Below are positions 11,513 through 64,000 of a DNA stretch of 64,000 nt, piece after piece. A program made the position numbers and the translations under genes. Source of the stretch: Bacteroidota bacterium (GTDB taxonomy: Bacteria > Bacteroidota > Bacteroidia > Bacteroidales > Porphyromonadaceae); NCBI GenBank assembly GCA_023396255.1, contig JAEWWU010000018.1, positions 61,899 to 125,898 of the forward strand, given 5' to 3'. The notes under the pieces are model-generated. The model was not told the origin of the DNA and did not search any database. It saw nothing but the letters and a program-made list of their open reading frames with translations. The first letter of the stretch is position 1; every line of letters begins with the position of its first letter.

Positions 11513-14350
11513 TCAATATCTAAGTTGTACTTCCATTCCGAAATAAGGGAATACATTACGCCGAACAATAATGTTGTTGGCTTTATAGTCGGGTGTGTAA
11601 TCCCACAGATTGTGAGCAAAAATGGACATACGGAGATGCTTCCCCACCATTTTTGTCAATTTCAAATTGACGTTCACGCCTCCGGGAACATATACTTCTC
11701 TAAACAGAGCCGAGTTGAAGCTCTCCTTGAGCTGTTTGAGGTACACATTCTGTTCACTTTCGGAGGTATAGTTGTGTAATTTCCCGTCCTCCGCAGCAAA
11801 ATAGGCAAATGGAGTTCCTTCCATAGGCATTCGACGCATAGCCGTGAACCAAACACACTCGACCGTTGTCGAAAAAATGAGGCCATAGTGAGGTATTTGG
11901 GTATCCAAAATGATGTTGGTATTAAGGCGTTTATTGTGACTTCCTTCATCTCGGTTGTACAATCCTACGTAAAGATCTCCAACAGCCTTATTGTCGATTA
12001 CGGCAGAAACGGGAACAAAAAGAGCCATACTATTGGAATAGGAAGAGTGGTAATAGGCTCCATTGATCGTTATGGCTGTTCTCAAAGCAGCTATTCGCGG
12101 CGAGGAGAACGAAAACTCTATTCCCCTTTTAACTACCAATGTCCCATTCTGAGGCAGTGATTTAATTTCTAACTTCTTCTCTCTCGTGTACGGGATTGCC
12201 GACAGATCGGGAGGAGCCGTAAGAGAAGATCCATCAACAGAAGAGTGATCGTATTTCTTAAACGAATAGGCCTCCGGTTCGGGATTGTATCTAAAGCCCG
12301 TAGTCATCTTCTCAAAAAAGCCGGTAACTCCGATCGAAAATCCATCTCCCCAATTAACCCGAATATGAGCATCCACCTTATGATTAAGGGTGGGTTTGAG
12401 GTTATAAGAAGAGACATCTCTGACATAGGTTATCACATTGAACCGGCTGTACATCTCGGGATGGTACACATCATAATAGTTGAGCTGCAAAATATCTATG
12501 TAACGAGTGTCCGGAAAAAGATAGTTGAGTGTGGGCATCCGATGGGTTGTTCCGTAACCGACTCCACAAGAGACCAAAAACTGTTCCTTTCCCACCCTAA
12601 GGGAGCGACTCTTCCATTGCAAATTGGCCCTCGGATCCAAATAAACCTTTCCCGCAATCAGATACTTCTTGTCGAGCCCCGGTAAGGATGTCGATCGCAC
12701 CCCCGCCCTCAATTCCAAGCTATTCTTATCATTGATAGGAACGGAGAAAAAGTCCTCGGCAAAAAAGGATAGCGTTTGCAACGCAGGAATAGTTCTGTAA
12801 TCACGGGGGCGTGTGTCCCATCTGCCAATAAATATGGGGCGACGAAGGTCGTACACCTGCCCTTTACCCCAATTCTTAACGAAGCTGTACTCCGCCCCTC
12901 CTTTGAAGTCGTGTACACATCCTTCAAACTTCAGTCTGTAAGAAGCCGTAGTTGAAAAGTCCACACTAAACGGACGACCATAACAAGCGTAGTCGGCAAC
13001 ATACTCCCCCAACAAAAGGGAAGCATCGTGCTCCCCACTCTCATAAGACGAGGGAGCCAAAGAGGCCCTGTCCGGAGCCATCAATTTGCGTTCTCGAAGC
13101 AACTCTATCTGTTGAGAGGCACTGCACCGAATTTTAAACTCTTTCCACCCCGAATCCTCCACATCGGGAGAAAGAAATTGCCCCATACCGGTCAGAGCGC
13201 AACGGTTGTATGAAGAATAATACTCGTCTGTCTTCCCATACGACAAATCGGGATCTCGCTTAGCATTATCGAAAGATCCTGTATAATCTCCTATCACGTG
13301 CCATTTCCAATGATGCTCTTCTCCATAATAGCGCAGCGATGTATTGATTCTTTTGTATCCGACAAGGAGGTTTCTGGGATCAATTCGAGAATCAATAAGT
13401 CCTAAGTCTGCGTTTATATGTTGCTGACCATTGGAAGACCCCCGATTAAGTACAACACCTCCCTCAATATATCCCAGCTTACTGTACCCGTCTGCCTTAA
13501 ATCGAGCAGATGGGCTCACAACCCTACTCTTGCGAGTGACCAGCACCACTCCGGAGGTAAGATTGCCAAACTCCACCGAAGGGATACCGGTGATGAACTC
13601 CACTTGTTCGATGTTATCCGTGCTCAACGTGCGCATATCCACTCCCCGATTGATACTGTTTCTTTGGCTCTCCCACACAGACGATGTTCCGGATGGCTTA
13701 TACTGCAAGTTGCCGTCCGTAACAATAGGGGCACCATCTACCACAAAAGAAACGCCGAGAGAAGTTATGGAATAATTAGGATTATACGTTTGCGCTCCGG
13801 AGGTGGACAAAGAGCCCGTCTCCCTCAACAAGAGAGGATTAAATCGATCCATCTGAGGGGCTGCACTTTTCCCACCCGGCAACAAGGCAATGAGATCCGA
13901 AAAACTATTTGGTTGTAAATGGTCTATGGCTGCACGACCTATTTTTATGGAAGAGGTTTCTCTGTTACCGGCCTTTGCCGTGACAACAACAGTAGACAAT
14001 CTCCGAGAATCTTGAAACAAAATATCTCGCAACACCACCCCACCGGAAACCGAAGAAGAACGAACCTTTTCCCCTTTGGAAACGATCCCCAAATAGCGAC
14101 ACCGAACGTACAACTCTTCGTTGCAGGGAAGTCCTTGTAGTAAATACTCTCCTCGCTCATTGGTGACCGTTACGGCTATTTCCTTTTGACTCTTTTCGCT
14201 CCAAGCCGACACCGTGGCATACTCCAAAGGCAACAAACTACTCTCCTCGATAACTTTTCCCCGAATGGAAGAACTTTGTTGCTGAGCATCAACGGCATAG
14301 AATGAAATAAAAAATATAATTACGTACAGTGTTTTCTTGTACCGATTCAT
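11513..14350 (-). CDS. TonB-dependent receptor with N-terminal carboxypeptidase-regulatory-like domain
   Basis: Signal YVIIFFISFYAVDAQ, IRGKVIEESSLLPLEYATVSAW (CarbopepD_reg-like), a plug region (..IEQVEFITGIPSVEFGN), and a C-terminal ..YFGMEVQLRY. ATG at 14350 preferred. Confidence 0.85.
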   Translation of the reverse strand: MNRYKKTLYVIIFFISFYAVDAQQQSSSIRGKVIEESSLLPLEYATVSAWSEKSQKEIAVTVTNERGEYLLQGLPCNEELYVRCRYLGIVSKGEKVRSSSVSGGVVLRDILFQDSRRLSTVVVTAKAGNRETSSIKIGRAAIDHLQPNSFSDLIALLPGGKSAAPQMDRFNPLLLRETGSLSTSGAQTYNPNYSITSLGVSFVVDGAPIVTDGNLQYKPSGTSSVWESQRNSINRGVDMRTLSTDNIEQVEFITGIPSVEFGNLTSGVVLVTRKSRVVSPSARFKADGYSKLGYIEGGVVLNRGSSNGQQHINADLGLIDSRIDPRNLLVGYKRINTSLRYYGEEHHWKWHVIGDYTGSFDNAKRDPDLSYGKTDEYYSSYNRCALTGMGQFLSPDVEDSGWKEFKIRCSASQQIELLRERKLMAPDRASLAPSSYESGEHDASLLLGEYVADYACYGRPFSVDFSTTASYRLKFEGCVHDFKGGAEYSFVKNWGKGQVYDLRRPIFIGRWDTRPRDYRTIPALQTLSFFAEDFFSVPINDKNSLELRAGVRSTSLPGLDKKYLIAGKVYLDPRANLQWKSRSLRVGKEQFLVSCGVGYGTTHRMPTLNYLFPDTRYIDILQLNYYDVYHPEMYSRFNVITYVRDVSSYNLKPTLNHKVDAHIRVNWGDGFSIGVTGFFEKMTTGFRYNPEPEAYSFKKYDHSSVDGSSLTAPPDLSAIPYTREKKLEIKSLPQNGTLVVKRGIEFSFSSPRIAALRTAITINGAYYHSSYSNSMALFVPVSAVIDNKAVGDLYVGLYNRDEGSHNKRLNTNIILDTQIPHYGLIFSTTVECVWFTAMRRMPMEGTPFAYFAAEDGKLHNYTSESEQNVYLKQLKESFNSALFREVYVPGGVNVNLKLTKMVGKHLRMSIFAHNLWDYTPDYKANNIIVRRNVFPYFGMEVQLRY

Positions 14351-14500: not shown

Positions 14501-14605
14501 GGGATTAGTTCCCTGCAAAGAAAAATTATGTTGGACGGAAGAAAAATTCATAGGGAATTATCAAACAATAATTCCCTGCTTTTCTCCAATTTTGAGGGAA
14601 CTATT
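14501..14605 (+). repeat. Mosaic intergenic repeat, copy 1 (type I)
   Basis: 9-mers TAGTTCCCT 14506, AGGGAATTA 14552, TAATTCCCT 14569, AGGGAACTA 14595, with core TTGGACGGAAGAAAAATT. About 85-90% identical to copy 4 with identical 46/17/26 spacing. Confidence 0.9.
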
Positions 14606-14730
14606 CAAGAAAGAATTCTTGAGGAAAAAGTAAAAGATCTGTGTGTGTAAAAAATTGATACGATAACGTCTACGAGAAGTTTTTGTCCACTCATCTTTTC
14701 TGTTTGTCGACAAAAGACGACCTTTGTCTT

Positions 14731-15576
14731 ATGAACAATGCGATGATTAAAAGATATCTGTTCAATACACCCTCGACAATCGGAGTTGAAGCCAAGAGTC
14801 TTGATTTTCTTTGGGAAAAAGCTCCTATGACAGAGGGAATACATCGAGCTGATTTTTACCATCTTATTTGGGTAGAAAAAGGAAACCTTTTTCTGATGGT
14901 TGACTTTGAAGAGCTTTGTTTGCAAAGCAACGATGCTTTTCTTATATCTCCGGGGCAAATCTGTCGCTTTAATCTTCTATCCCATCCACAAGCATTCTCT
15001 GTATTATTCGTTCCCGAATTCCTTGGTGAAGCCTCAACCGATGCTCAACTTCTTCATCGAATATTAAGGATAAGTCCCCTTGGGCATAAAGTAATATCCT
15101 TGCAAGGTCTACCTATGAGCAGTCTGATGCAACAACTTATCCGTGAACTGGAAAACGATACAGACGAATATCAATTAGTCGTTGCACGTAGCTGTTTGCG
15201 TATCTTGTTGGCTGAAGTTGCCCGCCGTCTCCCCAAAATGCCCGGCAACTCAAATGAAACTGCAAAACGTTTTTTTGAAGAGGTGGAAAAACACCATCAC
15301 CAATGGCACAATGTGAGTGATTATTTACCTCTGCTTTCTGTACAAGAGAAACCTCTCTCCGAATCCGTCCGCCTTGCCGTAGGAATGACCCCCAAAATAT
15401 ATCTCGACCAAAGACGTATGCTCGAAGCCAAACGCTTTCTGGCATATAGCAACCTATCTATCAAGGAAATTGCATTCTCTTTGGGATTTGATGAACCGAC
15501 GAACTTCAACAAATTCTTTCGCAAGCACTCCGGCATAAGTCCTAACGAATTTAGACTTATGCAGACAAGAAAATAA
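14731..15576 (+). CDS. AraC-family transcriptional regulator
   Basis: C-terminal double HTH (..IKEIAFSLGFDEPTNFNKFFRKHSGISPNEFR) and an N-terminal cupin-like domain. The first ATG is at 14731; the listed start at 14683 is TTG. Confidence 0.85.
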   Translation: MNNAMIKRYLFNTPSTIGVEAKSLDFLWEKAPMTEGIHRADFYHLIWVEKGNLFLMVDFEELCLQSNDAFLISPGQICRFNLLSHPQAFSVLFVPEFLGEASTDAQLLHRILRISPLGHKVISLQGLPMSSLMQQLIRELENDTDEYQLVVARSCLRILLAEVARRLPKMPGNSNETAKRFFEEVEKHHHQWHNVSDYLPLLSVQEKPLSESVRLAVGMTPKIYLDQRRMLEAKRFLAYSNLSIKEIAFSLGFDEPTNFNKFFRKHSGISPNEFRLMQTRK

Positions 15577-32965: not shown

Positions 32966-33459
32966 AATCCATTCTTCCCCACTCGGTTCTTACCGACATA
33001 AAGCACTAATTCCGCATTCAGAGCCGACCTTTTGCCTCATTTTGCCATTCCGAGCAGACATCCGCGAAGATAACCATTTTTTACCAAAGCCCTCGTCATC
33101 CGTTCCCAAGCTGTGAAAAAACAAGGGAGCAACTTCTCTACAAGAAAACTCCTCCCAACACCTCGTCTGGGTTCTTTCGTTTCCGCTCTGCCAAAGAGAC
33201 AATAGCCAAGGTTTTCTAATAAATAATTATTTATTTCTTCAAATTGCCCTCTACCTATGGTAAATTCGTATAAAGACATCCTTTCAAGCCCTTTTAACAA
33301 TTTTTAGAATATTTTCCCTAACAACAAGAGTGAAACAACAATCAAAAAAATTGAATGCAACACCTCTTGAAATCGGATAAGAGCTTCTCCATTTTTCGGG
33401 GAATGTTTTCCTCCCTCATATCCCCTGTTTTTCGAGACTCCAATTACCTATTTCCTCAT

Positions 33460-33571
33460 AAAAAATATTTGCTTGGACGGAAGAAAAATTTGTAGGGAAT
33501 TATCAAAAATTAGTTCCCTGAAAATAGGCGATTAGTTCCCTACTTTTTTGTCATTTTGAGGGAACTAATCG
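33460..33571 (+). repeat. Mosaic intergenic repeat, copy 2 (type II)
   Basis: AAAAATATTTGCTTGGACGGAAGAAAAATTTG core, then AGGGAATTA 33494, TAGTTCCCT 33511, TAGTTCCCT 33533, AGGGAACTA 33559. Confidence 0.9.
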
Positions 33572-36964: not shown

Positions 36965-39900
36965 ATGATGAAAAAAATTAGTTTCTTATTGTACTCATTG
37001 CTATTGTGTATGGCAGGGGTACTGACGGGTTGGGCGCAAGATGCTCCTGCCCTAAAATTCAAAACGGAGCAATCCATAGGAACCAAACAGAGTATAAGCG
37101 TCGTAACCGCAGAAGGAGCTTATCGGGTCGATTGGGGAGATGGCAAACCCATTGAGTACAGTGCAATGATGAGTTCGGGAACTGTTCAAGGCAATTACAT
37201 TGCCGTTTATGGATCCATTAAATCTTTATCTTTGACCGGTGCCAAGATTACGGCGGTGGAGACCTTCAATGCCCCCAACCTAACCATCTTTAATCTTAGC
37301 GACAACCAACTGACGTCATTGGTATTGCCTCAACTTGCTTTGCTCAAAAGTTTGTCGTTGCAAAACAACCGCTTATCCGAATTGGTTCTCAACAATTACC
37401 CGGCATTGGAAACCCTCAACATCAAAGGCAACGGAATGGGTAAACTCACGTTGAACAACCTGCCTCAACTAAAAACTTTGATGATGGCGGAAAACCTCGT
37501 GACCGAGTTGGATTTGAGCAAATTCGCTGCCCTCAACTCGGTACGCGCATCCAAAAACAAATTGGCCAAGGTCGTGTTAGCCCCTAATCTTAAAGAGTTG
37601 CACGCCGAAGACAATTTACTTACCTCTATGGCTCCGGTCAAGGATATGCCCAACTTGAAAACGCTCCGTTTGAGTGGCAACCGAATTGCATCGATGACAG
37701 TAGACGGTTGTGCCGTTTTTGCCGAACTTGAGCTCAATGATAATGGGCTTACGGCACTTTCGTTGAACAACCTGCCCAAGCTCTCTCTTCTGTATCTGAA
37801 AAACAATAAACTCTCTGCCCAAACACTTGAAACGATATACAAAGCTCTCCCAAACAATAGCCGAGGAGTTATCAAAATAGAAGGCAACGAAGCGGCTGCC
37901 TCCTCTCCTATGTCCATCGCCACGGACAAGGGTTGGAAGGTAGATGTTGCTCCCGTTGCACAAAGGCAATTGGTTGAGGGAACAGACTATACGCTCAGCA
38001 ACGACCGAGAAGGATTGGCACGTTGGTTGGCAGAAGATTTGTCTTTGATCGATTTGAATCTTGATGCCACCCTTTCTCAAATCAAGAGAATAGATGATTA
38101 TGCTTTCTTTGGAGCTGTTTCGGTGCAAAAAATTCTCTTGCCCTCTTCTTTGCAGAGTATAGGGGTCGGTTCATTTATGGGGTGTGGTCTCAAAGAAATC
38201 AAACTCCCCAAAGGACTAAGGAGCATAGGTAAGGTAAATGGGAAGAATAGCAATCCTTTTGGAGAGTCTCTCTCGCTGACCAAGATCAATGTCGAGGAGG
38301 GAAACAGTCGTTTTGCCTCCATTGACGGAGTGTTGTACTCCAAAGACGGCAGTATGATGATTGCTTATCCTGCCGGTCGCTCCGGGGCAGAGTTTTCCAT
38401 CCCCAAGGAGGTACAAGAAGTTGGGCAGTGGGCTTTCTCCGGAGCATTGTTCCTCAAGAAAGTAATCTGCCCTTCCGAACTTAAAACCATTCACCAATAT
38501 GCTTTTGCCGACGCCGGGTTACTGAACCAAGTAGAACTTAATGAAGGTCTTACAGCTATCGATTGGGCAGCTTTTCAGCGCACCGCCATCGAATCGATCT
38601 CTTTGCCCAAGAGCCTGGGGGTGGTAATGGATGGTGATTATCCCGTAAATCCTTTTATGGGGTGCACTTCGCTCAAAGAAATTCGAGTAGCAGAGGGCAA
38701 TAGTACTTACAGCGTGAGCGAAGGGATACTCTACGCAACCGAAAAAACTTCTCTCATAGCTGTTCCCGCTTCACTCTCGTTGGAGCAATACACCCTTCCC
38801 GCTTCGGTCAAAAGCATAGCTATGGGGGCCTTTGCCGGGCAAAAAAATCTCAAAGGAGTACGCATCCGCCAATATATCGCCGTTCCGTTGAGAGCCTTTG
38901 ACGAGTGTTTGCGGCTCGAAAGTGTACGCCTCGAAACGGGTACACCATACATCGCCGATCAAGCTTTTAGTGGATGCACGGCTCTGAAGAATATTTATTT
39001 GATCAACAAGAAAGTACCGGCAATAGGTGAAGAAGCCTTTGATCAAGTTCCTGCCACCGCAGTAGTCTATGTCGCAGAAGGTGGTAAGGCTTTGTACGAA
39101 GCTGATGCTAACTGGAAGAAGGCCATTAGTGCCTCTTATCAAGAAGTAGCACCCATTTACAGCTTTTTACAAATCCATCGCGAGGAGTTTGTCAAGCTGA
39201 CTAATACCGAAGAGGGAGCTGAGTTTTACAACCAAATTCCCGAAATTGCTCCCCTATGCCGCAACAACACAGAAGTCGTAGGCAATATAACCGGGATGAC
39301 TTCGATTGTGGTATTGGGTACCCAAAAAGGTAGCGACTACGAGGCTCTCTATTTGGTAGAAGTTGTACCCACACAAGCCTCTTTCGTTGAGCCTTATCTG
39401 AGTCGCCAAAATCGCAATCGTGCCAACATTGTTAGCTACGAGAAAGAACTAGCACAACGCACTTTGACTCAAGAGGAAGACTCTTTCGGAGGGAAGTTGG
39501 TTACATTCTCTTCGGAACAACAACCCGGGGTAGCTGTCAAATACCTCTTTATGGGGGACGAAGCCGTTATGTACACCACAATTGTTTTCGACAGCAAAAA
39601 GATCTACACCAATCTCAAAGCCGATGTTTTCTTTGCAGAACGCTATACGGCGGCTACGGGAACCGATTTGGACGACCAGGCCTTTGACGGATTTGTTCGC
39701 CCCGATGGAGTAGGCTACGAATACAGAGAAATGGATATAGAAGAAAGCAACGACCCTGTAATTAACATTGCCTATTTCTTTGCAAAAGAAGTTACGTACA
39801 AGCCTATAACACTGCATACCGAAACTATTGAAGCCCAACCGATAGGCTCTCTTATTCTGCAGGGTAATCGTTTGCTGTTTCCACAAGAGAGCGTTGAGGT

Positions 39901-40051
39901 AACTATTTATAATATGGCAGGTGCAAGAGTATATACAGCATCCGTTCAGGGAGTACCCTCAATGGAGTTGCCTTTGTTGGAACAAGGCTCTTTTCTGGTA
40001 GTGGTACGCTCTGCCGATGGAGCAGCCTCTGTACTTAAAGTGATGCGATAA
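36965..40051 (+). CDS. Large surface protein with classical LRR module, BspA-type LRR region and T9SS CTD
   Basis: Signal LLYSLLLCMAGVLTGWAQ. About 10 LxxLxLxxNxL repeats (aa 95-290), then BspA-type repeats (IDDYAFFG..SLQSIGVGSFMGC..LRSIG, EVGQWAFSG, IHQYAFAD, IAMGAFAG, IADQAFSGC). Tail ..GSFLVVVRSADGAASVLKVMR. Confidence 0.85.
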   Translation: MMKKISFLLYSLLLCMAGVLTGWAQDAPALKFKTEQSIGTKQSISVVTAEGAYRVDWGDGKPIEYSAMMSSGTVQGNYIAVYGSIKSLSLTGAKITAVETFNAPNLTIFNLSDNQLTSLVLPQLALLKSLSLQNNRLSELVLNNYPALETLNIKGNGMGKLTLNNLPQLKTLMMAENLVTELDLSKFAALNSVRASKNKLAKVVLAPNLKELHAEDNLLTSMAPVKDMPNLKTLRLSGNRIASMTVDGCAVFAELELNDNGLTALSLNNLPKLSLLYLKNNKLSAQTLETIYKALPNNSRGVIKIEGNEAAASSPMSIATDKGWKVDVAPVAQRQLVEGTDYTLSNDREGLARWLAEDLSLIDLNLDATLSQIKRIDDYAFFGAVSVQKILLPSSLQSIGVGSFMGCGLKEIKLPKGLRSIGKVNGKNSNPFGESLSLTKINVEEGNSRFASIDGVLYSKDGSMMIAYPAGRSGAEFSIPKEVQEVGQWAFSGALFLKKVICPSELKTIHQYAFADAGLLNQVELNEGLTAIDWAAFQRTAIESISLPKSLGVVMDGDYPVNPFMGCTSLKEIRVAEGNSTYSVSEGILYATEKTSLIAVPASLSLEQYTLPASVKSIAMGAFAGQKNLKGVRIRQYIAVPLRAFDECLRLESVRLETGTPYIADQAFSGCTALKNIYLINKKVPAIGEEAFDQVPATAVVYVAEGGKALYEADANWKKAISASYQEVAPIYSFLQIHREEFVKLTNTEEGAEFYNQIPEIAPLCRNNTEVVGNITGMTSIVVLGTQKGSDYEALYLVEVVPTQASFVEPYLSRQNRNRANIVSYEKELAQRTLTQEEDSFGGKLVTFSSEQQPGVAVKYLFMGDEAVMYTTIVFDSKKIYTNLKADVFFAERYTAATGTDLDDQAFDGFVRPDGVGYEYREMDIEESNDPVINIAYFFAKEVTYKPITLHTETIEAQPIGSLILQGNRLLFPQESVEVTIYNMAGARVYTASVQGVPSMELPLLEQGSFLVVVRSADGAASVLKVMR

Positions 40052-40111
40052 GATTTTTCATCACCGGGATGCCGCTTTCTTCGAGACTTTGTTTCTCGAG
40101 GGGCATACATT

Positions 40112-40170
40112 GAGGGCGAGACGATTTTCTCTTTTATCAAGAGTTCGATCTCGCCCTCTTTGTATTTTTT
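40112..40170 (+). terminator. Rho-independent terminator
   Basis: A 10-bp stem (gagggcgaga / tctcgccctc) followed by tttgtatttttt. Confidence 0.6.
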
Positions 40171-44726: not shown

Positions 44727-46091
44727 TTATTCCTGTATTTTGGTTGTCGAGGGCTCGGAGCTTTTTTTCCTCTTCTTTTGCGAATGGTTTCTACGCTTAT
44801 TTTTCTCCTCGGAATTGCCACCCTGTCCGGACCTCTTTCCTGTCAGTTGCTGCCTGCCTGCATTGCGAGTATGGCCCTTGCCTCTACCTTGTGACGAAGA
44901 TCTGCGCTTGTTGTCTCTCTCCTGCGGAGCGTAGTCCGGGGCTGCCCCCAGCTCTGTATCTATCGGCAGCCGATAGATTTCTTTGCCAAGAAATTTTTGC
45001 AAGCGGGCAAATCCACTCTGCTCTTTGGGGGCAATAAGCGTTATGGCAAGCCCCTCACCGTCCGTTCCCCGGGCGGTACGTCCGATGCGGTGTACATAAT
45101 CTTCGTGGTCGTGGGGCAGTTCATAGTTGATCACCAACCCAATGTTATCGATGTCTATTCCGCGAGCTACCACATCTGTCGCCACCAAGATTTGTATTTT
45201 TCCACTGCGGAAGTCTCGCAAGACACTTTCCCTTTCGGTTTGCTCCAAATCCGAATGGATTGCAGCCACCGGCAAACGATGCTGCTTGAGGGCGGAGTGC
45301 AAGGCACGTACCACCGACTTGGACGAAGAGAAAATAATGGTACGTTTATTTTGTGCTTCTAACGAAGATCCCACCAACAAACTGCGAACAAGGGGTAGTT
45401 TTTGCTCCTCATAACAGATATAAGCCGTTTGCATAATGGTTTCGGGCGGACGAGAAATGGAGAGCTCCACCAGTTGTGGCTCCTTCAGGATGTTGCGTGC
45501 CAAAGTTTTGATTTTGGCCGGCATTGTGGCAGAAAACATAACCGTTTGGCACGTTGCGGGCAGAGTTTTGTAAATAGCCATAATGTCGTTGTAGAAACCC
45601 ATATCGAGCATTCTATCGGCTTCGTCCAAAACAAAATAGGAGACTTGCGATAGGTCACAAGCTTGAAGGTTAATCATACTGAGCAACCGCCCGGGAGTGG
45701 CTATGACGATGTCTACTCCCATATCCATTCCTCGACGCTGTTGCTCCCAAGCGATGCCATCCGTTCCCCCGTAAATGGCCAATGTACTCAGAGAAACGAA
45801 GTACGAGAAACCCTCCACCTGCCGATCTATCTGCTGTGCCAATTCGCGAGTGGGAGCCATAACGACGGCATTCACCCGATTGCCCGAAAGCTCTCCGCGA
45901 CAAATGCGGTTGATAATGGGAAGCAGATAGGCGGCCGTTTTGCCCGACCCGGTTTGGGCACACCCCAGCACGTCGCGACCCGACAAGATGAGTGGGATGC
46001 AAGCCTTTTGGATGGGAGTCATTTCTGAAAAATTCATCGCATCTAAGCCGTCCAATACTTCGTTTTCTAAATCCAGATCGCTAAATCTCAT
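44727..46091 (-). CDS. DEAD-box ATP-dependent RNA helicase with basic C-terminal tail
   Basis: Q motif (F..MTPIQ), AQTGSGKT, PTRELA, DEAD (VLDEAD), SAT, HRIGRTAR, and an RGG/K-rich tail. Confidence 0.9.
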   Translation of the reverse strand: MRFSDLDLENEVLDGLDAMNFSEMTPIQKACIPLILSGRDVLGCAQTGSGKTAAYLLPIINRICRGELSGNRVNAVVMAPTRELAQQIDRQVEGFSYFVSLSTLAIYGGTDGIAWEQQRRGMDMGVDIVIATPGRLLSMINLQACDLSQVSYFVLDEADRMLDMGFYNDIMAIYKTLPATCQTVMFSATMPAKIKTLARNILKEPQLVELSISRPPETIMQTAYICYEEQKLPLVRSLLVGSSLEAQNKRTIIFSSSKSVVRALHSALKQHRLPVAAIHSDLEQTERESVLRDFRSGKIQILVATDVVARGIDIDNIGLVINYELPHDHEDYVHRIGRTARGTDGEGLAITLIAPKEQSGFARLQKFLGKEIYRLPIDTELGAAPDYAPQERDNKRRSSSQGRGKGHTRNAGRQQLTGKRSGQGGNSEEKNKRRNHSQKKRKKSSEPSTTKIQE

Positions 46092-46115
46092 TCTTTTTTT
46101 GTTTTGTTAGATGCA

Positions 46116-46123
46116 CAAATGTA
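46116..46123 (-). promoter_or_regulatory. -7 promoter box (TACATTTG on the minus strand) for the helicase gene
   Basis: Perfect TAnnTTTG, 25 nt upstream of the ATG at 46091. Confidence 0.55.
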
Positions 46124-46303
46124 CTCTTTTTTAACCATAAGCGGATCAAGTCTTTTATTTTTTGAATTTATAGGGGAAAAAGAGGGAGGAGGCGAAGAAA
46201 GAGCCTCCAAAATAGGGGCACGGCCACCCATAAAGAGATCAATAGAAAAGGAGGGAGATACCGCACACTGAAAGAACAAACATAAAGCATCCCTCAACTC
46301 CGT

Positions 46304-46417
46304 GATTTAGTTCCCTGCAAATCCCCGATTAATTCCCTACTTTTGGGCGATTTTGAGGGAATTAATTTTGGATAATTCCCTACAAATTTTTCTTCCGTCC
46401 AAGCAAATATTTTTTAC
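46304..46417 (-). repeat. Mosaic intergenic repeat, copy 3 (core on the minus strand)
   Basis: TAGTTCCCT 46308, TAATTCCCT 46330, AGGGAATTA 46356, TAATTCCCT 46373, then the reverse-complemented core AAATTTTTCTTCCGTCCAAGCAAATATTTTT. Confidence 0.9.
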
Positions 46418-46622
46418 GAAGGTGAAACCTCCTCGCAAGACCCACTTCTACACAACAATTTACCTTACAATATCCTCTATTTTGTTTTCCTGTTGATTTA
46501 TTTTGATCGATTGTTGCACCAATATTGCCATCTGAAAATAACATTTATGCACTATAAGACAGCAAAAAGAAGTATCATCCCATTTGTTTACACTTTTTCG
46601 TGCTTTTGATAAAAATGTTCCG

Positions 46623-46686: not shown

Positions 46687-47568
46687 ATGAATCAAGAACA
46701 ATTGCAACAGATGAAGCAAGCTCCCGGCTTTATAGGAGCGTTGGATCAGAGTGGGGGCTCTACGCCCAAAGCGCTCAAAGCTTATGGAATAGAACCGGAA
46801 GAATACAAGTCCGAAGAGGAGATGTTCGAACTAATCCACCAAATGCGTGCCCGAATGATTACCTCTCCCGCTTTTGCAACCAAAAAAATCATCGGTGTAA
46901 TTCTCTTTGAACGCACTATGCGTGGCGAAATAGAAGGAATCCCCACAGCCGACTTCCTTTGGCAAAAAAGACAAATTGTTCCTTTCTTAAAGGTTGATAA
47001 GGGACTGCAAGAAGAAGCCAATGGGGTACAATTGATGAAGCCGTTCCCCGAGTTGGGCAAGCTGTGTGACGAAGCGGTTGGTTACAATGTTTTTGGGACC
47101 AAGATGCGTAGCGTTATCAAACAAGCAAATGAGCAGGGAATACGCGACATTGTAGAGCAACAATTCCAGTGGGGTCGTGAAATCTTGTCTCACGGTTTGG
47201 TGCCCATTTTGGAACCCGAGGTAGACATCAAATGTCCGGACAAGGCCAAGGCTGAAGAAATTCTTAAGCGTGAATTGTTGGCTCAACTTGACAAGCAAAC
47301 TCAACCCGTGATGCTAAAAATAACGATTCCCACCGTGGCCAACTTCTACAAAGAAATCATCGAGCATCCTATGATGTTGCGTGTGGTTGCCCTTTCGGGA
47401 GGATATAGCCGCGAAGAAGCCAATGAACTTTTGAGCCGCAACCACGGCATCATAGCTTCGTTTTCAAGAGCATTGGCAGAAGGCTTGTCTGCCAAGCAAA
47501 GCGATGCCGAGTTCAACGCTGTCTTAGAAAAGTCAGTAGACGGCGTTTACCAAGCTTCTATTCAATAA
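46687..47568 (+). CDS. Class I fructose-bisphosphate aldolase
   Basis: [30 protein letters not shown] is a typical bacterial class I FBA N-terminus, and the Schiff-base lysine region is FLKVDKG. The first ATG is at 46687. Confidence 0.85.
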
Positions 47569-49538: not shown

Positions 49539-50915
49539 ATGAAGCACTTTAGCTATCGGATGATACTCCCAATCCTTCTAATTCTTTCGGGACTTGTCTT
49601 TTCTTGCCGCCCCAAGGAACAAGAACCTAAAAATGCGACTCTCTCAATGACTTCTCTTAGTTTAGGGATAGGAGAAAAGAAAACAATTAGTGTAACAGGA
49701 ATCAGCGAAAAAGATCGGGTCAATTGGTCAATTGATAAACCCGAAGTTGCCTCCATTGACAATGGAGTTGTAACGGCAAAAGCACTCGGTCAAGCCTTGA
49801 TTACGGCCTCCATAGAGTATTCCGGAGGCAAAAACCAGAAATTAACTTGTCAGCTTACCGTACTTGCGGGGAAAGATACACATATACAATTTGAAGATGC
49901 CAATCTAAAACGCCTTATCTTGGAGCGGTATCCGCTTATAGACCTTAATAAAGACGGAGAGCTGACCCCGGAAGAGGCAAAAGGAGCAAGATCTCTTATG
50001 TTCGAGTTTGAATCGAAAGACGATATTACTTCCAACAACAAAATAACCAATTTGAAAGGATTGGAGTATTTTATCAATTTGGACTCTTTGGGGCTCAAAA
50101 ATCAATATGTCTCCGATGCTACACCCATCTTTGGACTAAAAAGACTAACCTACCTGCATTTGGGGAACAATAACATCGCGATGCTTGATGTTTCGGGGAT
50201 GAAACAGCTATCCGACTTACGAGCCTATGGCAACAGTCGCCTCAAAGAACTCAACCTAAGTAATAACACAGAGCTCCGAGAACTATACCTCCAAAATGTT
50301 TCCATCACCCGTATCGATCTAACTCCTCTCAAGAAACTAACCAAGGCACTTCTGAACAGAGGAAAATTGGAACAGATTGCTTTCTCCGATCTTCCTGTTT
50401 TGGAGCGCATAGACATTGTTGAGAACAACCTCAAAGGACTAACGGCAAACAATTTGCCAGCTTTGAGGGAGCTGCACGCCAACAAAAACCAGATTGAAAA
50501 AGTGGACCTAAAAAATCTACCGGAACTACAACGCCTCAACCTCTATGAAAATAAGCTGACACAGATTGACCTGACTGCTTTCCCAAAAATTATGTTCCTC
50601 TTCCTTTTCGACAACAACCTAAGTCAATTAGACCTCTCTAAACAAACTTCACTGTTGCATCTTTTTGTGTCCAATAATCCTTTGGAAACGTTGGATTTGA
50701 GCAAAAATTCTCACATATCCTCCATAGAAGCAATCAATATGCCCCGCCTCAAAACCATCAATCTGCGCAATCAAGGTTATAATGAGGAGGCCGAATACTT
50801 CATTGTCGAGGGCAACAATCTTTTAGAAAAAGTTTTGGTCGACAGCGGAGCGGAAGAGACCCACGTACGCAATCTATTCAAAAACAACTCTAAAGTGACC
50901 ATCGAAGCACAGTAA
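49539..50915 (+). CDS. Lipoprotein with Big_2 Ig-like domain and about 12 leucine-rich repeats
   Basis: MKHFSYRMILPILLILSGLVFSC lipobox. Big_2-like LSLGIGEKKTISVTG..VASIDNGVVTAKALGQALITA, then 22-residue LxxLxLxxNxLxxLD repeats. ATG at 49539 preferred. Confidence 0.8.
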   Translation: MKHFSYRMILPILLILSGLVFSCRPKEQEPKNATLSMTSLSLGIGEKKTISVTGISEKDRVNWSIDKPEVASIDNGVVTAKALGQALITASIEYSGGKNQKLTCQLTVLAGKDTHIQFEDANLKRLILERYPLIDLNKDGELTPEEAKGARSLMFEFESKDDITSNNKITNLKGLEYFINLDSLGLKNQYVSDATPIFGLKRLTYLHLGNNNIAMLDVSGMKQLSDLRAYGNSRLKELNLSNNTELRELYLQNVSITRIDLTPLKKLTKALLNRGKLEQIAFSDLPVLERIDIVENNLKGLTANNLPALRELHANKNQIEKVDLKNLPELQRLNLYENKLTQIDLTAFPKIMFLFLFDNNLSQLDLSKQTSLLHLFVSNNPLETLDLSKNSHISSIEAINMPRLKTINLRNQGYNEEAEYFIVEGNNLLEKVLVDSGAEETHVRNLFKNNSKVTIEAQ

Positions 50916-50942
50916 CAATTTTTGTGTTTCGTTCGAGAAACA

Positions 50943-50996
50943 GAGAGTAGAAGCCCCTTTCTCTTTCAAGGGGGACTTCTACTCTTTCTTTTTTCT
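50943..50996 (+). terminator. Rho-independent terminator
   Basis: Stem gagagtagaagcccc / ggggacttctactct followed by ttcttttttct. Confidence 0.7.
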
Positions 50997-58221: not shown

Positions 58222-58262
58222 CGAGCCACACAAGTCCTGCTTACTGTTCTAATCGGACAAAA

Positions 58263-58314
58263 AACTGTTCTAAACTGACATTTTGCATTTATATCAACTG
58301 TTCTAAACTGACAT
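58263..58314. repeat. Two perfect 19-bp direct repeats AACTGTTCTAAACTGACAT spaced 33 bp, plus a partial copy CTGTTCTAA at 58244
   Basis: Read directly at 58263-58281 and 58296-58314, immediately upstream (minus-strand sense) of the -7 box at 58214. Confidence 0.85.
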
Positions 58315-58749
58315 ATTTCTTCCGCAACCAACTGATTATCAAAATGAATCGCAAACACCTCCTTCAAATTTCTCAAAATGATGTTTTGAGAACCAAAGGA
58401 GTCGAATTGTTACGTTATTCCGATTGGTAAAACCCTTCAAAGTGGAGACTAAATATTTTCCTAAGGATGGATTTTGTGAATAGGAAGAGTGAGAACCATC
58501 CGAAATAATTAATAAGTATTTTGGTACACTCAAAAGCTCTTGTATTTTTGCCAATAGAAAAAAATACATAAGAAGCACCCGCAACCTTGACGGAGAGAGG
58601 TATACTTCTCCCAAAAGAATTATCGACCACTATAAAAAGTACGTTGTATTACTCAACGATCTGCAATTGCCCTCAAACAGAGGGTATTTGTCATATTCGT
58701 GCTTGGGAAATGGAACAACGGCTAAAAAGCAACGAATACAACGAACCCT

Positions 58750-61602
58750 ATGACTCCACGCAAACCCTCTTTCGCAAATCTTTGGCACCTATGGAATAAA
58801 CATTGCCTCCTTGTTATAAGTGTACTGGTGGCATTCATTTCCCTCCTATCGGTTTCGTGCAGCAAACCGCCCGTGTCTTTCTCCCCTGAAGAACGCAAAG
58901 CAGTGGATAGCCTTGTTCGCTCCGTTCGTAATGTGGATTCGCTTGCCCTACTGCAAAAGCGGTTCGAAAGAGAGGGCAATCGGTTGGGCAGCATTGTTGC
59001 ACTGAGAGAATGGGGCAAAGCTCTACGCAACGAAAGCAGGTTCGATGAGGCTCTGAATGCCCACAGCGAGGGGCTTAGGCAGGCAGAGGCCATCGGAGAT
59101 ACTTTGGAATGGATACAAGCACTCAACAATATGGGTACGGACTACCGAAGATTGGGCGTGTTCGATGTGGCACAAGAATATCACTACCAAGCATATACGA
59201 TCAGCTTGGAGTGTGCAGACACCTCTTACGGTGCTAAGAAAAACCGTGTGGTATCGCTCAACGGATTGGGCAATGTCTATATGACGCTGAGAAACTATGC
59301 GCGGGCAGACAGTGCTTTTCGGTTGGCTCTGGTGGGCGAACAGGAATTGCACAGTACAACGGGACAAGCCATCAACTTCGCCAATATGGGATCGATCTTT
59401 GAGCAACAGGGGAAAACCGATTCGGCTTGGGTATATTACCGTCGCTCTATGGCATTCAATCAGGAGGCGGGCAACAAACTCGGCATATCGCTCTGCCACA
59501 CCTACTTCGGGTCGCTCTACGAAAAAGCAAAAGAATACGACAAAGCAACACAAGAGTACGAAACAGCATACTCCCTTATGCAAGCCTCAAAAGACGAATG
59601 GCACGTTTTGAACACACTCGTTGCACTCGCCGGCATCTACTACGCCACCGGCAATGATCCGAAGGCTTTGGATTACCTCGGCAAAGCCAAAGCGATAGCA
59701 GAGCAAATCAAATCGAGAGAACACTTGGCAGACATCCACACCTTATATTATAAGCTCCACAAAAGACAAGGAGACAAAGGGGCTGCTCTCTCTGCCTACG
59801 AAGTTGCCACAGCAATGCAAGACAGCATATTGGATGTGGAAAAGATAAATCGCATCCAAAATACGAGTCTCAACATTGAGCGAAGCCGTAAAGAAAGGCT
59901 GATGAGTGCCGCACAGCTCAAATTGGAAGAAGAACGAACGTGGCGCCGTGTAGGTTACGGTATCTTTGCTCTTCTTTTGTTACTCCTTACCGGATTCGTG
60001 ACAATGCAACTCTACATTCAACGCTTGCGGGTACGCAACCACCGTGCCTTGAAACAGATGTCTGCGTTGCGTGAGAATTTCTTTACCAATATTACCCACG
60101 AATTTCGCACTCCTCTTACCGTAATACTTGGGCTAAGTCGCGATGTACAAGAGGCGACGGAGTGCCCTCCGGAAATCAAAGACAAAGTACAGACCATTGA
60201 GAGGCAAGGCAACGGATTGCTCACGCTCATTAACCAACTCTTGGATATATCAAAGGTGAAGTCGGCAGTAGGAGACCCCGATTGGTATAACGGAAACATC
60301 ACAATATACCTCACAATGATTGTGGAAAGCTACCGTGAGTATGCTCGTAATCAGGGCATTGACCTGCAATTTCTTTCAAAAGGAAGTGTGGAGATGGACT
60401 TTGTACCCGACTACGTAAAAAAGGTGATGAACAACCTGCTTTCCAACGCATTTAAGTTCACCCCCAAGTATGGCAAAGTGAGCGTGATTGTATGGAGCGA
60501 AGACAATCAACTGCTTATAGATGTAATGGATACAGGTAAAGGAATGAGCAGGGAAGTTCTCTCCCGCATCTTTGAGCCTTTCTATCAAGCCGAGGGCGAT
60601 ACTCGAAACATTGGCACGGGAGTGGGTTTGGCACTCGTCAAGCAGGTTATAGACTCCGTAGGAGGCTGCATCAAAGTGGAAAGCACAGAAAACAGAGGAA
60701 CCACTTTTCACATCAGTGTACCCATTCGCAACCAATGCAAGCGGCAATTGACCGATCAAGAGGAGGCTAACAACCCTCTGCTTCCGGAAATAGGAGCAAT
60801 ACCCTTGGACAGCGAAAAAGAGGACAACGAATGCCGTTTGCTTATCATCGAAGACAACCAAGATATTGCCACTTACATCGGCTCGCTATTCTCCGGCTCC
60901 TATGCCATCTCTTATGCCTCCAATGGAGAAGAGGGATTGGAAAAGACATTGGATCTTGTTCCCGACCTAATCATCACCGATTTGATGATGCCCGGTATGG
61001 ACGGATTGGAGGTATGCCGACAGATTCGCAGCAACGAGATTGTAAACCACATTCCCATCATCGTGGTAACGGCAAAGATTACCGAAGAGGAGCGCATCAA
61101 GGGGATACAAGCCGGTGCAGATGCCTATCTTTCCAAACCCTTTAGCAGTGAAGAGCTGCGCACACGGGTCGAGAAACTGCTCGACCGCCATCGCCGCCTG
61201 CGGCACAAATTTGGAGAGAAAGCCGATGCCCCTACCAAAGACAAAGAAGAGTCTCTTACAGAAGCAGAGCGTCGTTTTCTTACCAAAACGGTGGACTTTA
61301 TCTATATCCTCCTGAACAAACGGCAACTGGAGGTAAACACCTTGGCTGAAAAACTCTGTATGAGCCCCAGACAGTTTCATCGAAAAATTATCGCCCTGAC
61401 AGGCGATACACCCGCCTCCTATATGCTGAAGATAAAGATGCAGAAGGCTCGTTTATTACTCGAGGGTAGCCCCGAACTGAAGATAGAAGACATCGCCGAA
61501 CGCTGTGGCTTTGATCATTCTTCCAGTTTCTACCACGCATTTAGGAAGGTCTACGGCATTACACCCACGGAATACAGACGAAGCTGCGCCGGAAAAGGGT
61601 AA
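58750..61602 (+). CDS. Hybrid sensor kinase/response regulator with periplasmic TPR sensor and C-terminal AraC-type HTH
   Basis: TM1, then TPR-like repeats, then TM2 (GIFALLLLLLTGFV). HisKA (FFTNITHEFRTPLT), HATPase (DTGKGM.., GTGVGLALV), REC (LLIIEDN..DLIITDLMMPGMDG..K), and HTH_AraC (IEDIAERCGFDHSSSFYHAFRKVYGITPTEYR). Confidence 0.9.
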   Translation: MTPRKPSFANLWHLWNKHCLLVISVLVAFISLLSVSCSKPPVSFSPEERKAVDSLVRSVRNVDSLALLQKRFEREGNRLGSIVALREWGKALRNESRFDEALNAHSEGLRQAEAIGDTLEWIQALNNMGTDYRRLGVFDVAQEYHYQAYTISLECADTSYGAKKNRVVSLNGLGNVYMTLRNYARADSAFRLALVGEQELHSTTGQAINFANMGSIFEQQGKTDSAWVYYRRSMAFNQEAGNKLGISLCHTYFGSLYEKAKEYDKATQEYETAYSLMQASKDEWHVLNTLVALAGIYYATGNDPKALDYLGKAKAIAEQIKSREHLADIHTLYYKLHKRQGDKGAALSAYEVATAMQDSILDVEKINRIQNTSLNIERSRKERLMSAAQLKLEEERTWRRVGYGIFALLLLLLTGFVTMQLYIQRLRVRNHRALKQMSALRENFFTNITHEFRTPLTVILGLSRDVQEATECPPEIKDKVQTIERQGNGLLTLINQLLDISKVKSAVGDPDWYNGNITIYLTMIVESYREYARNQGIDLQFLSKGSVEMDFVPDYVKKVMNNLLSNAFKFTPKYGKVSVIVWSEDNQLLIDVMDTGKGMSREVLSRIFEPFYQAEGDTRNIGTGVGLALVKQVIDSVGGCIKVESTENRGTTFHISVPIRNQCKRQLTDQEEANNPLLPEIGAIPLDSEKEDNECRLLIIEDNQDIATYIGSLFSGSYAISYASNGEEGLEKTLDLVPDLIITDLMMPGMDGLEVCRQIRSNEIVNHIPIIVVTAKITEEERIKGIQAGADAYLSKPFSSEELRTRVEKLLDRHRRLRHKFGEKADAPTKDKEESLTEAERRFLTKTVDFIYILLNKRQLEVNTLAEKLCMSPRQFHRKIIALTGDTPASYMLKIKMQKARLLLEGSPELKIEDIAERCGFDHSSSFYHAFRKVYGITPTEYRRSCAGKG

Positions 61603-61732: not shown

Positions 61733-61840
61733 GGGATTTAGTTCCCTGCGAAGAAAAATTATATTGGACAAAAGAAAAATTTGCAGGGAATTATCGAAAA
61801 ATAATTCCCTCAAAATCGTCCAAAAGCAGGGAACTAATCG
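61733..61840 (+). repeat. Mosaic intergenic repeat, copy 4 (type I)
   Basis: TAGTTCCCT 61739, AGGGAATTA 61785, TAATTCCCT 61802, AGGGAACTA 61828, with the same 46/17/26 spacing as copy 1. Confidence 0.9.
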
Positions 61841-62943: not shown

Positions 62944-64000
62944 TTAGCGTACAAAATATTTCTTCCCATTCACAACGTAAACCCCTTCCGGAAGCCCGTC
63001 AAGATTAGAGCTACCTTGGCGCACCACTTGACCATTGATATCAAAAACAATGTCTGCATAGACATCCCCCTCTTGGTTCCTCTCTGTGTTGGGAAGGACT
63101 TCCGCTATGGCTGTGGGGGCTTGCTGCTCCTTGCTTGGGAACATTACGCCGGCTCTCTTCCCGGCTCCGTTATCCTTGCTCATCAGAACGCAAGCGGTGT
63201 ATTTGGTCCATCTTCCTCCCTCTTTTATCCGTTTGTAGAAGCCGGCACCGAATTGATTATTACCTGAATAGTAGTAATAACAAGGTGTGGAAAAAGTGCG
63301 TTCTTGGTACGTACCTTTGAAAGTGTACTTCACTCCGTCCAAGGAGAAAGACACTTCTTGCAAACTTTCTGCTTTTTCTTCCTGCTTTACGATGCCCGTT
63401 ATTGTAGAATAGGTACCGATCCCCTGCGATGTTCCGGTTCTGATTCCCGGGTGTATCATATAGGGGTGGTGAGCTTTTGTTTCCATTACATTGGTCTTAA
63501 ACTCCAAGACAATAGCTCCGTCTGAGTTCTTCTTTACTCCCGAAAACTCTACCACCTCGCAGCTTGCTCCATAGGCACTCTCAATCTGTTCGCGGGTCAT
63601 ATTGAACGGAAAACACAATGTGTACCACTTATCTTCTACTCGCACCTCATCTTTCCATATGGAACTGTCTGCCTGCTCCATAGTCAGCATAAAGTTGTTC
63701 CAACCGGCATACTCTCCTTGATTGTTATTAAACTTTCCAAAGTCTTGCACTGGCCAGATATTTCCATTATACCTTACAAACTTCTTCTCCCACTCTTGAG
63801 TTGTTCCATTTTTAAGGTTTTTAATATGTTGGTTTACATATTTCTCATAAGCTGATTTGGGGTAATGCAGCACGGTAGGCATCGTATAACCCGTGGCTTG
63901 GTTCTTAATGGCATCCCTCTGCACCTCTTCGCCTTGACTTGCCCCCGAGTAGGTGTAAGCGTAGGTATTATTTGGCTGAAAAGCGTGATCCATACACTTG
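62944..64000 (-). CDS. Secreted protein with T9SS CTD (5' end outside the window)
   Basis: The frame stays open past the listed ATG at 63993 to the window edge. Tail ..DINGQVVRQGSSNLDGLPEGVYVVNGKKYFVR is CTD-like. Confidence 0.65.
   Translation of the reverse strand, partial: KCMDHAFQPNNTYAYTYSGASQGEEVQRDAIKNQATGYTMPTVLHYPKSAYEKYVNQHIKNLKNGTTQEWEKKFVRYNGNIWPVQDFGKFNNNQGEYAGWNNFMLTMEQADSSIWKDEVRVEDKWYTLCFPFNMTREQIESAYGASCEVVEFSGVKKNSDGAIVLEFKTNVMETKAHHPYMIHPGIRTGTSQGIGTYSTITGIVKQEEKAESLQEVSFSLDGVKYTFKGTYQERTFSTPCYYYYSGNNQFGAGFYKRIKEGGRWTKYTACVLMSKDNGAGKRAGVMFPSKEQQAPTAIAEVLPNTERNQEGDVYADIVFDINGQVVRQGSSNLDGLPEGVYVVNGKKYFVR

Follow-up and report, generated by a model that had tools for sequence, protein, structure and literature searches.

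The region at positions 14501-14605 of the window (the whole stretch of 64,000 nt analysed here) contains four copies of the 9-mer TARTTCCCT, counting both strands, and raises the question of whether such a cluster is a dispersed repeat, an array of protein-binding sites or a structured RNA. The window has a GC content of about 45% and belongs to an uncultured member of the Bacteroidales, a Porphyromonas-like gut bacterium. It encodes a SusC-like receptor, a hybrid two-component system, PFOR, a peptidase S46 and many BspA-like LRR proteins, and its DEAD-box helicase is 63-68% identical to the counterparts in Porphyromonas, Tannerellaceae and Parabacteroides. An earlier note on this DNA had reported four such clusters, had likened them to BIME/REP mosaics or a MITE, and had considered them equally compatible with an operator array and a structured RNA. 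Our analyses show that the window species carries a family of about 110-bp hairpin-forming intergenic repeats that has not been described before. The family is lineage-restricted and extends, to a modest degree, a class already known, that of small palindromic intergenic repeats; it is not a new kind of system.

Both strands of the window were screened for TARTTCCCT, which resulted in 16 exact matches, against 1.28 +/- 1.24 expected and a maximum of 5 in 100 dinucleotide shuffles. All 16 are located inside four clusters, c1 to c4, and none elsewhere in the window, so the four clusters and their 16 half-sites are real and lie where they had been reported. Sites with one mismatch are present in the window at background level (36 versus 31.6 expected), which indicates that the 9-mer is confined to the elements and does not occur as an independent word of the genome. 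All four window copies contain the core TTGGACNNAAGAAAAATT without a mismatch. A search with an nhmmer profile built from these four did not reveal extra degenerate copies in the window. Looking up the flanks, we found a fifth, partial copy (c0) 2.1 kb left of the window within the 10 kb covered on that side; the 8 kb covered on the right do not contain a further copy. Hence, five copies are present per about 84 kb of window and flanks, all of them intergenic, and a high genome-wide copy number is plausible. The claim that the four window copies are intergenic was borne out; 13% of the window is intergenic, and the probability of this placement arising by chance is p = 3e-4.

The repeat unit can be written as (G/T)(Y/G)AGGGAAYTA, i.e. 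TARTTCCCT followed by nC and an A4 or T4 tract, and alignment of the 19 sites of the five copies gives (G/A)(A/T)-TA(R)TTCCCT-nC-W4-T, with 18 of the 19 9-mers being exact. Placed in inverted as well as direct orientation, the units keep constant spacings of 8, 17 and 13 nt and surround a conserved linker rich in A-tracts. The layout of the ancestor reads A, 37 nt containing the A-tract-rich core, B, 8 nt, C, 17 nt, D, 13 nt and D', of which c1 and c4 retain A to D, c2 and c3 retain a decayed A together with D', and c0 retains only B to D. The mosaic order is A+ B- C+ D-, with the 37-nt linker conserved and the 17-nt loop reading nCTTTTnnnnnATTTTG or its complement. The B-C unit, AGGGAATTAT-N6-ATAATTCCCT, spans 26 bp and is present in all five copies.

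Copy c1 (14501..14605, plus strand) is a complete form with the sites A (14506-14514, +), B (14552-14560, -), C (14569-14577, +) and D (14595-14603, -). Its linkers are 37 nt between A and B, including the core (14531-14548), 8 nt between B and C, and 17 nt between C and D, and it is flanked by a TonB-dependent receptor gene (minus strand, ATG at 14350) and an AraC-family gene (plus strand, ATG at 14731). Copy c4 (61733..61840, plus strand) is also complete, with A at 61739-61747 (+), the core at 61764-61781, B at 61785-61793 (-), C at 61802-61810 (+) and D at 61828-61836 (-). A hybrid two-component/AraC gene stops 131 nt before it, and a gene for a 60-aa BFD-like ferredoxin starts 142 nt after it (61982). 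The start-to-start spacing of the 9-mers (46/17/26) is exactly the same in c1 and c4, as had been noted, and the identity of 85-90% claimed for this pair agrees with the 88% found over 73 ungapped nt, the full-length figure being 83 of 102 aligned positions.

Copy c2 (33447..33571, plus strand) begins with a degenerate remnant of A (about 33447-33459), followed by the core (33473-33490) and the sites B (33494-33502, -), C (33511-33519, +), C' (33533-33541, +) and D (33559-33567, -), with gaps of 8 nt (B-C), 13 nt (C-C') and 17 nt (C'-D); the ATG of dapB (33694) is located 123 nt downstream. Copy c3 (46304..46417) is in the minus orientation, and contains D' (46308-46316, +), D (46330-46338, +), C (46356-46364, -) and B (46373-46381, +), separated by 13 nt (D'-D), 17 nt (D-C) and 8 nt (C-B). 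Its core occupies 46385-46402 on the minus strand and its degenerate A remnant about 46418-46432, and it is flanked by the DEAD-box helicase gene (minus strand, ATG at 46091) and a class-I aldolase gene (plus strand, ATG at 46687). The left arm said to be shared by c2 and c3 is an identical stretch of at least 40 nt (about 44 nt by eye). The alternating orientation attributed to all copies applies to c1 and c4, but not to c2 (- + + -) or c3 (+ + - +). Copy c0, at 14172-14238 of contig L161, consists of D (with one mismatch), 17 nt, C, 8 nt and B, and lacks both the core and A; the stop codon of sod is on one side and a 70-aa ORF on the other. It is flanked by a short inverted repeat of its own (TCGTAAAT ... 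ATTTACAA; L161 14165-14250), which is unrelated to the 9-mer, so this truncated element still lies within a local palindrome.

The termini of c4, GATTTAGTTCCCTGC and GCAGGGAACTAATC, are near-perfect inverted repeats. The terminal inverted repeat of c1 comprises 9 + 4 bp, the left terminus is degenerate in c2 and c3, and c0 has none. At its foot, the B-C hairpin reads GTAG in c2, c3 and c0, GCAG in c4 and ATAG in c1; counted by eye over the 19 sites, the feet are GTAG (5), GCAG (7), TGAG or TCAG (6) and ATAG (1).

We then asked whether the copies share an origin. They are 88%, 83% and 82-89% identical over 60-105 nt, spacers included, and the nhmmer alignment covers about 155 nt of each copy. 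Because the homology runs through the spacers, the copies are related by descent; at the level of sequence comparison, they are shown to be dispersed repeats that arose by duplication or transposition, and not binding sites that evolved independently. The B-8-C-17-D spacing is found in c0, c1, c3 and c4, and the same gaps occur in c2 on an inverted segment: 33510-33569 of c2 is the inverted counterpart of 46307-46366 of c3 (83% over 60 nt). Thus, c2 and c3 differ by an inversion that has 9-mers exactly at its bounds.

Sites and spacers have diverged very differently. In the B to D modules, compared over all pairs of copies, identical and different positions number 157 and 5 in the sites versus 92 and 58 in the spacers (Fisher p about 3e-16, a value computed on pairs that are not independent). 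Between c1 and c4 alone, 36 of 36 site positions are identical, versus 47 of 66 other positions (p = 1e-4). Overall, the spacers differ by 20-40% between copies.

A sister lineage, L147, whose helicase is 96% identical at the amino-acid level and 93% at the nucleotide level, has an element at the position of c3. Compared with c3, none of the 14 non-degenerate 9-mer positions has changed, and both sites toggle at the R/Y position, while 4 of 13 positions of the 13-nt spacer have changed, which is faster than the flanking intergenic DNA. Comparison of about 146-355 of L147 with 46092-46340 of the window also showed about 190 nt extra in L147, between the element and the helicase promoter, which the window species lacks.

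Variation within the window species was sampled via at least 10 NCBI MAGs together with ENA and Logan assemblies. Copy c1 was found in each of 11 assemblies, and its polymorphism touches no 9-mer. In three of them, the loop between B and C (14562-14567) has the sequence CAAACA; the other eight have the exact reverse complement, TGTTTG. The loop orientation is completely linked to a T/G SNP at 14585 and, because of this linkage, the flip looks like a single historical hairpin-mediated (template-switch) inversion and not ongoing switching. Every assembly spanning c4 contains it, with one loop SNP in one MAG; c2 and c0 do not vary among assemblies, and c0 is present in four of four. To the right of c1, a (TG)n run (14637-14646) shows a 2-nt length polymorphism among the MAGs. 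The events in the elements resemble the small hairpin-associated inversions attributed to quasipalindrome template switching, best known in chloroplast non-coding DNA: the c1 loop is reverse-complemented between perfect 10-bp arms, as is a 60-bp module between c2 and c3. That process is, however, a mutational one acting on the element, and leaves its origin and spread unexplained. Between strains, the family displays hairpin-driven loop inversion in a clean natural form.

Contigs of independent k=31 assemblies repeatedly terminate within the elements. In c3, three Logan (k=31) assemblies stop at one and the same base, and one stops in c2, because of the stretch that these two copies have in common. 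At c4, the ends of three Logan assemblies read ...GCAGGGAATTA, and a fourth begins with GAATTATCG... Since the longest stretch that c4 has in common with any other known copy is 17 nt, k=31 breaks at this position require further c4-like copies elsewhere or heterogeneity of the locus; inverting any pair of arms did not reproduce the exact break points. In practical terms, the repeat family fragments metagenome assemblies of the window species at reproducible points.

Next, we analyzed how widely the family is distributed. It was not found in 21 kb sampled from L148 (65% helicase identity), in 2 kb from L166 (72%), of which 227 nt are upstream of the helicase gene, or in 21 kb from L167-L170 (67%). 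It was also not found around LRR-protein homologues in 13.7 kb from L157 and 13.6 kb from L159. In more distant relatives, the synteny around the copies is lost. Among the lineages sampled, the family thus appears to be known only from the window species and its sister lineage. A search with AGGGAATTATCNNNNNNTARTTCCCT of a species-representative genome collection, from which the source species is absent, gave 15 matches, all of them single, unrelated terminator-like hairpins. On metagenome contigs the same query gave at least 120 matches, mostly human-gut, and none among the matches listed has a third 9-mer or the core. Three scans of viral contigs gave 0, 1 (in coding DNA, by chance) and 0 matches, and BLAST against plasmid and phage collections did not match the elements. 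Six-frame translations of the elements, with which spurious ORFs across other copies were sought, had no match in a protein database at E <= 0.1, and the literature on the 9-mers yielded only unrelated eukaryotic primers.

The LRR-protein homologues were also considered as paralogous regions of the same genome; this was rejected, as they come from other organisms (GC 40% and 53%) and contain no elements. The window itself has at least four BspA-like LRR surface-protein genes (482-2065, 36965-40051, 49539-50915 and 62944-64000), with more in the flanks. Beyond the species and its sister lineage, the closest homologue of the LRR protein reaches only 41% identity, which indicates a fast-evolving multigene family.

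Which explanation accounts best for these observations? We give about an even chance to the elements being a lineage-specific, small non-coding palindromic mosaic repeat, similar to REP/BIME (REPIN) sequences or to hairpin MITEs, the 9-mers of which are recognised by a putative trans-acting protein. The likeness seen in the earlier note is thus the best-supported reading, in view of the spacer homology, inverted units, intergenic position, hairpins and inversions, but membership in either family is at most putative. An ancestral element was copied by duplication or transposition, each copy being assembled from one short unit, and the palindromes have caused loops and whole modules to invert, as seen in comparisons of copies as well as of strains. 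A putative trans-acting protein would recognise the 9-mer, or the hairpin foot formed by it, and would copy, rearrange or homogenise the elements. That the 9-mers are invariant while the spacers decay points to such a protein partner, although the same pattern is also expected of a binding site selected by the host. The likeliest partner would be a single-strand HUH/Y1 transposase of the RAYT type, with a TIR-recognising transposase as the alternative candidate. Copies may survive at positions where their cost is low, in the larger intergenic regions ahead of core promoters.

A partner of the RAYT type is plausible because RAYTs with atypical, non-GTAG hairpin repeats are documented in Bacteroidetes. 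RAYT subclasses 2.4 and 2.6 occur in this phylum, with atypical hairpin repeats copied elsewhere in the genome; the repeats of subclass 2.6 were reported to lack the GT[AG]G foot, and a Flexibacter REP begins GTAGGGAA (PMC6006769). In canonical REPs, a 5' GT[AG]G guide tetranucleotide is located 0-2 nt from the foot of the hairpin (PMC6006769, PMC3733652), and REPs are mostly found downstream of genes (PMC3733652). Like the REP/BIME/REPIN sequences with their RAYTs in E. coli and Pseudomonas, the elements described here are strictly extragenic, form a narrow lineage-specific family and contain a short palindromic unit (B-C, with arms of 9-10 bp and a loop of 6-8 nt), of which the stem is conserved and the linkers vary. 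The units alternate with conserved linkers as in BIMEs and form inverted doublets that fold into a long hairpin as in REPINs, and some have a 5' GTAG foot (GTAGGGAA...). They differ in that only 3 of 5 B sites have this foot, the stems are A/T-rich instead of G/C-rich, and the loop is 6-8 nt long versus 2-5 nt in the canonical rule. Moreover, the elements are positioned upstream of genes, between divergent (three copies) or co-directional (two) genes and in no convergent region, only five copies were observed, and no RAYT gene was seen in the window or among the called genes of the flanks.

The second class with which the elements can be compared comprises hairpin MITEs and modular repeats such as Neisseria Correia/NEMIS, enterobacterial ERIC/IRU, and pneumococcal BOX and RUP. 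Shared features are the length of about 105-125 bp, the non-coding, intergenic location near gene starts, the terminal inverted repeats (c1 and c4) around an A/T-rich centre, the folding of the whole element as a long imperfect hairpin and, as in BOX A-B-C, modular or mosaic variants. In contrast to this class, there is no target-site duplication, no matching insertion sequence is known, presence/absence polymorphism was not seen, three of the five copies lack one terminus, and the internal 9-mer is repeated three to four times and is not only terminal. Porphyromonas gingivalis, which belongs to the closest named genus, contains MITEs (BrickBuilt, MITE239, MITE464/PgRS and MITE700) that are likewise small intergenic repeats, at roughly 10-20 copies per genome, but these have 23- or 41-nt tandem repeats that are absent here. 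The terminal inverted repeats of P. gingivalis IS elements and MITEs (GAGACCTTTGCA, ACGTGAGTTCGA and similar; IS5-type) were rejected as a source, as they do not resemble GATTTAGTTCCCTGC (PMC4596501).

Several results weigh against the preferred reading of a REP- or MITE-like mosaic. With only five copies and spacers as diverged as they are, there is no sign of a recent burst. Pfam searches detected no transposase, RAYT, Y1_Tnp or recombinase gene in the 64-kb window, nor transposase, RAYT or recombinase families among the called genes of the 18-kb flanks. No target-site duplication is present at c1 (..CTGAGG / AAGAAA..) or at c4 (..GGTTGG / GCCAAT..), where the flanks continue the palindrome. 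Empty sites were not found either: c1 (11/11), c0 (4/4) and c4 (all spanning assemblies) are always occupied, and c3 is present in the sister lineage. Small palindromic repeats have been well studied in Proteobacteria, Neisseria and pneumococci, but hardly any have been described in the Bacteroidales; so far, the only mention for this order concerns RAYT genes with "atypical hairpins".

The alternative that survives best is that the 9-mers are the sites of one DNA-binding protein, a global regulator or a nucleoid-associated protein, and that each element is a cis-regulatory module upstream of promoters, possibly spread by duplication. We consider it rather unlikely. In its favour, the spacers have diverged whereas the 9-mers hardly vary and keep a strictly fixed spacing, also with respect to the sister lineage (0/14 changes at non-degenerate 9-mer positions versus 4/13 in the 13-nt spacer); however, the one spacer compared there changes faster than the flanking intergenic DNA. 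The placement of the copies also fits. Each is flanked on one or both sides by a gene start, at 73-240 nt, and from the D end to the following start codon there are 126 (c1), 123 (c2), 213 (c3), 142 (c4) and 73 nt (c0). Of the five divergent intergenic regions in the window, three are filled by c1, c2 and c3, and none of the five convergent regions is filled, but this enrichment is not significant (p about 0.09), and c4 and c0 lie between co-directional genes. The predicted Bacteroidetes -7 boxes (TACCTTTG-type, TAnnTTTG) of the receptor, dapB, aldolase and helicase genes are outside the elements, which end 80-200 nt upstream of them; the elements are therefore upstream of core promoters and, judging from these predictions, probably outside the transcripts of the four genes. 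In addition, the loops contain phased A/T tracts, and both complete copies adjoin genes of AraC-type HTH proteins. Copy c1 is located 126 nt upstream of one (14731-15576) and c4 131 nt downstream of another (58750-61602), an adjacency that is probably a coincidence, with about 0.36 expected by chance. Against an operator array, the downstream genes are functionally unrelated (TonB-dependent receptor/AraC, dapB, DEAD helicase/aldolase, BFD ferredoxin, 70-aa ORF), the number of sites is variable, as is the distance to the start codon, modules lie inverted from copy to copy, and the homologous spacers show that the sites are not of independent origin. The TAnnTTTG box was also considered as a conserved part of the element and rejected, as it is not conserved in it; Fur box, DnaA box and IHF consensus were rejected as well, their resemblance by eye being partial and inconsistent.

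The REP- or MITE-like reading and the host-selected binding array are not mutually exclusive. Their combination, in which a palindromic repeat would have carried the operator array of a lineage-specific protein to promoter-upstream DNA, seems unlikely to us; if it were true, a mobile cis-regulatory module kept by host selection would wire these unrelated genes to a single factor. Related to it would be a first worked RAYT-type REP system in the Bacteroidales, with a GYAG-GGAA foot. Should a regulator bind the sites, the family would be an example of repeat-borne regulatory wiring.

The operator array and the structured RNA, presented in the earlier note as equally compatible, turned out to be unequal options: the former cannot by itself explain the spacer homology, and the RNA is disfavoured. 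According to the RNA reading, to which we attach a very low probability, the element is a small structured RNA or a 5' leader in which the alternating 9-mers form the stems of a conserved fold. The predicted folds are indeed very stable. Inverted units form predicted stems of 9-14 bp, and c1 and c4 fold as a single three-stem hairpin (A:D, TTGGA(C):(G)TCCAA and B:C) that as DNA could extrude as one hairpin of about 105 nt. Their z-scores are -4.7 (c1) and -8.0 (c4) as RNA, and -3.5 and -6.0, respectively, as DNA; c2 folds as two tandem hairpins. A B-C pair in c2 is G.U on the core strand and A.C on the other strand, and both orientation-informative copies (c4 and c0) share the direction of the downstream gene. 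However, c3, read in the core orientation, is not more stable in its folding than shuffled sequences (z = -0.5), and the compensatory changes that would have favoured RNA are lacking: for the consensus of c1, c4 and strain variants, RNAalifold gave a covariation term of +3, which is penalising; of 37 pairs, one is changed on both sides, and in the middle stem of the c1/c4 consensus fold many are broken. The stems are invariant in sequence and not covarying. Rfam gave no match on the elements at the gathering score or up to E = 5, no hairpin-plus-U-run terminator follows any of the four window copies, the C to D' module is inverted between c2 and c3 as is the c1 loop between strains, and promoters are predicted downstream of the elements. 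A structured RNA is therefore unlikely.

The least probable reading, to which we give hardly any credence, is an invertible DNA switch (inverton), in which a site-specific recombinase acting on 9-15 bp inverted repeats would flip a segment and switch its neighbours: invertons are common in Bacteroidales, c1 and c4 have 11-15 bp inverted repeats around about 80 bp, B-C looks like a recombinase core site (10-bp arms, 6-bp spacer), the c2/c3 inversion is bounded by 9-mers, the c1 loop occurs in both orientations among strains and assemblies break within the elements, but the window contains no recombinase gene, c1, c2 and c4 have no promoter motif and c3 only chance TAnnTTTG matches, the inverted pieces (6 and about 60 bp) are too short for recombinase synapsis, the c1 loop flip is fully linked to a SNP, and all full-length assemblies of c2, c3 and c4 show a single orientation.

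Two further features of the window were observed. Sub-threshold Rfam "Plastid-psbA-2" matches at 40106-40168 and 50939-50994, after two LRR-protein genes, proved to be ordinary G+C-rich hairpins that carry T-runs and have no relation to one another or to the repeat family. Finally, an 802-nt divergent region contains three direct repeats, ACTGTTCTAA(T/A)C.GACA, at about 58246, 58264 and 58297 (58246-58317), upstream of the hybrid two-component/AraC gene (58750-61602), and these may be an operator for an AraC-type protein.
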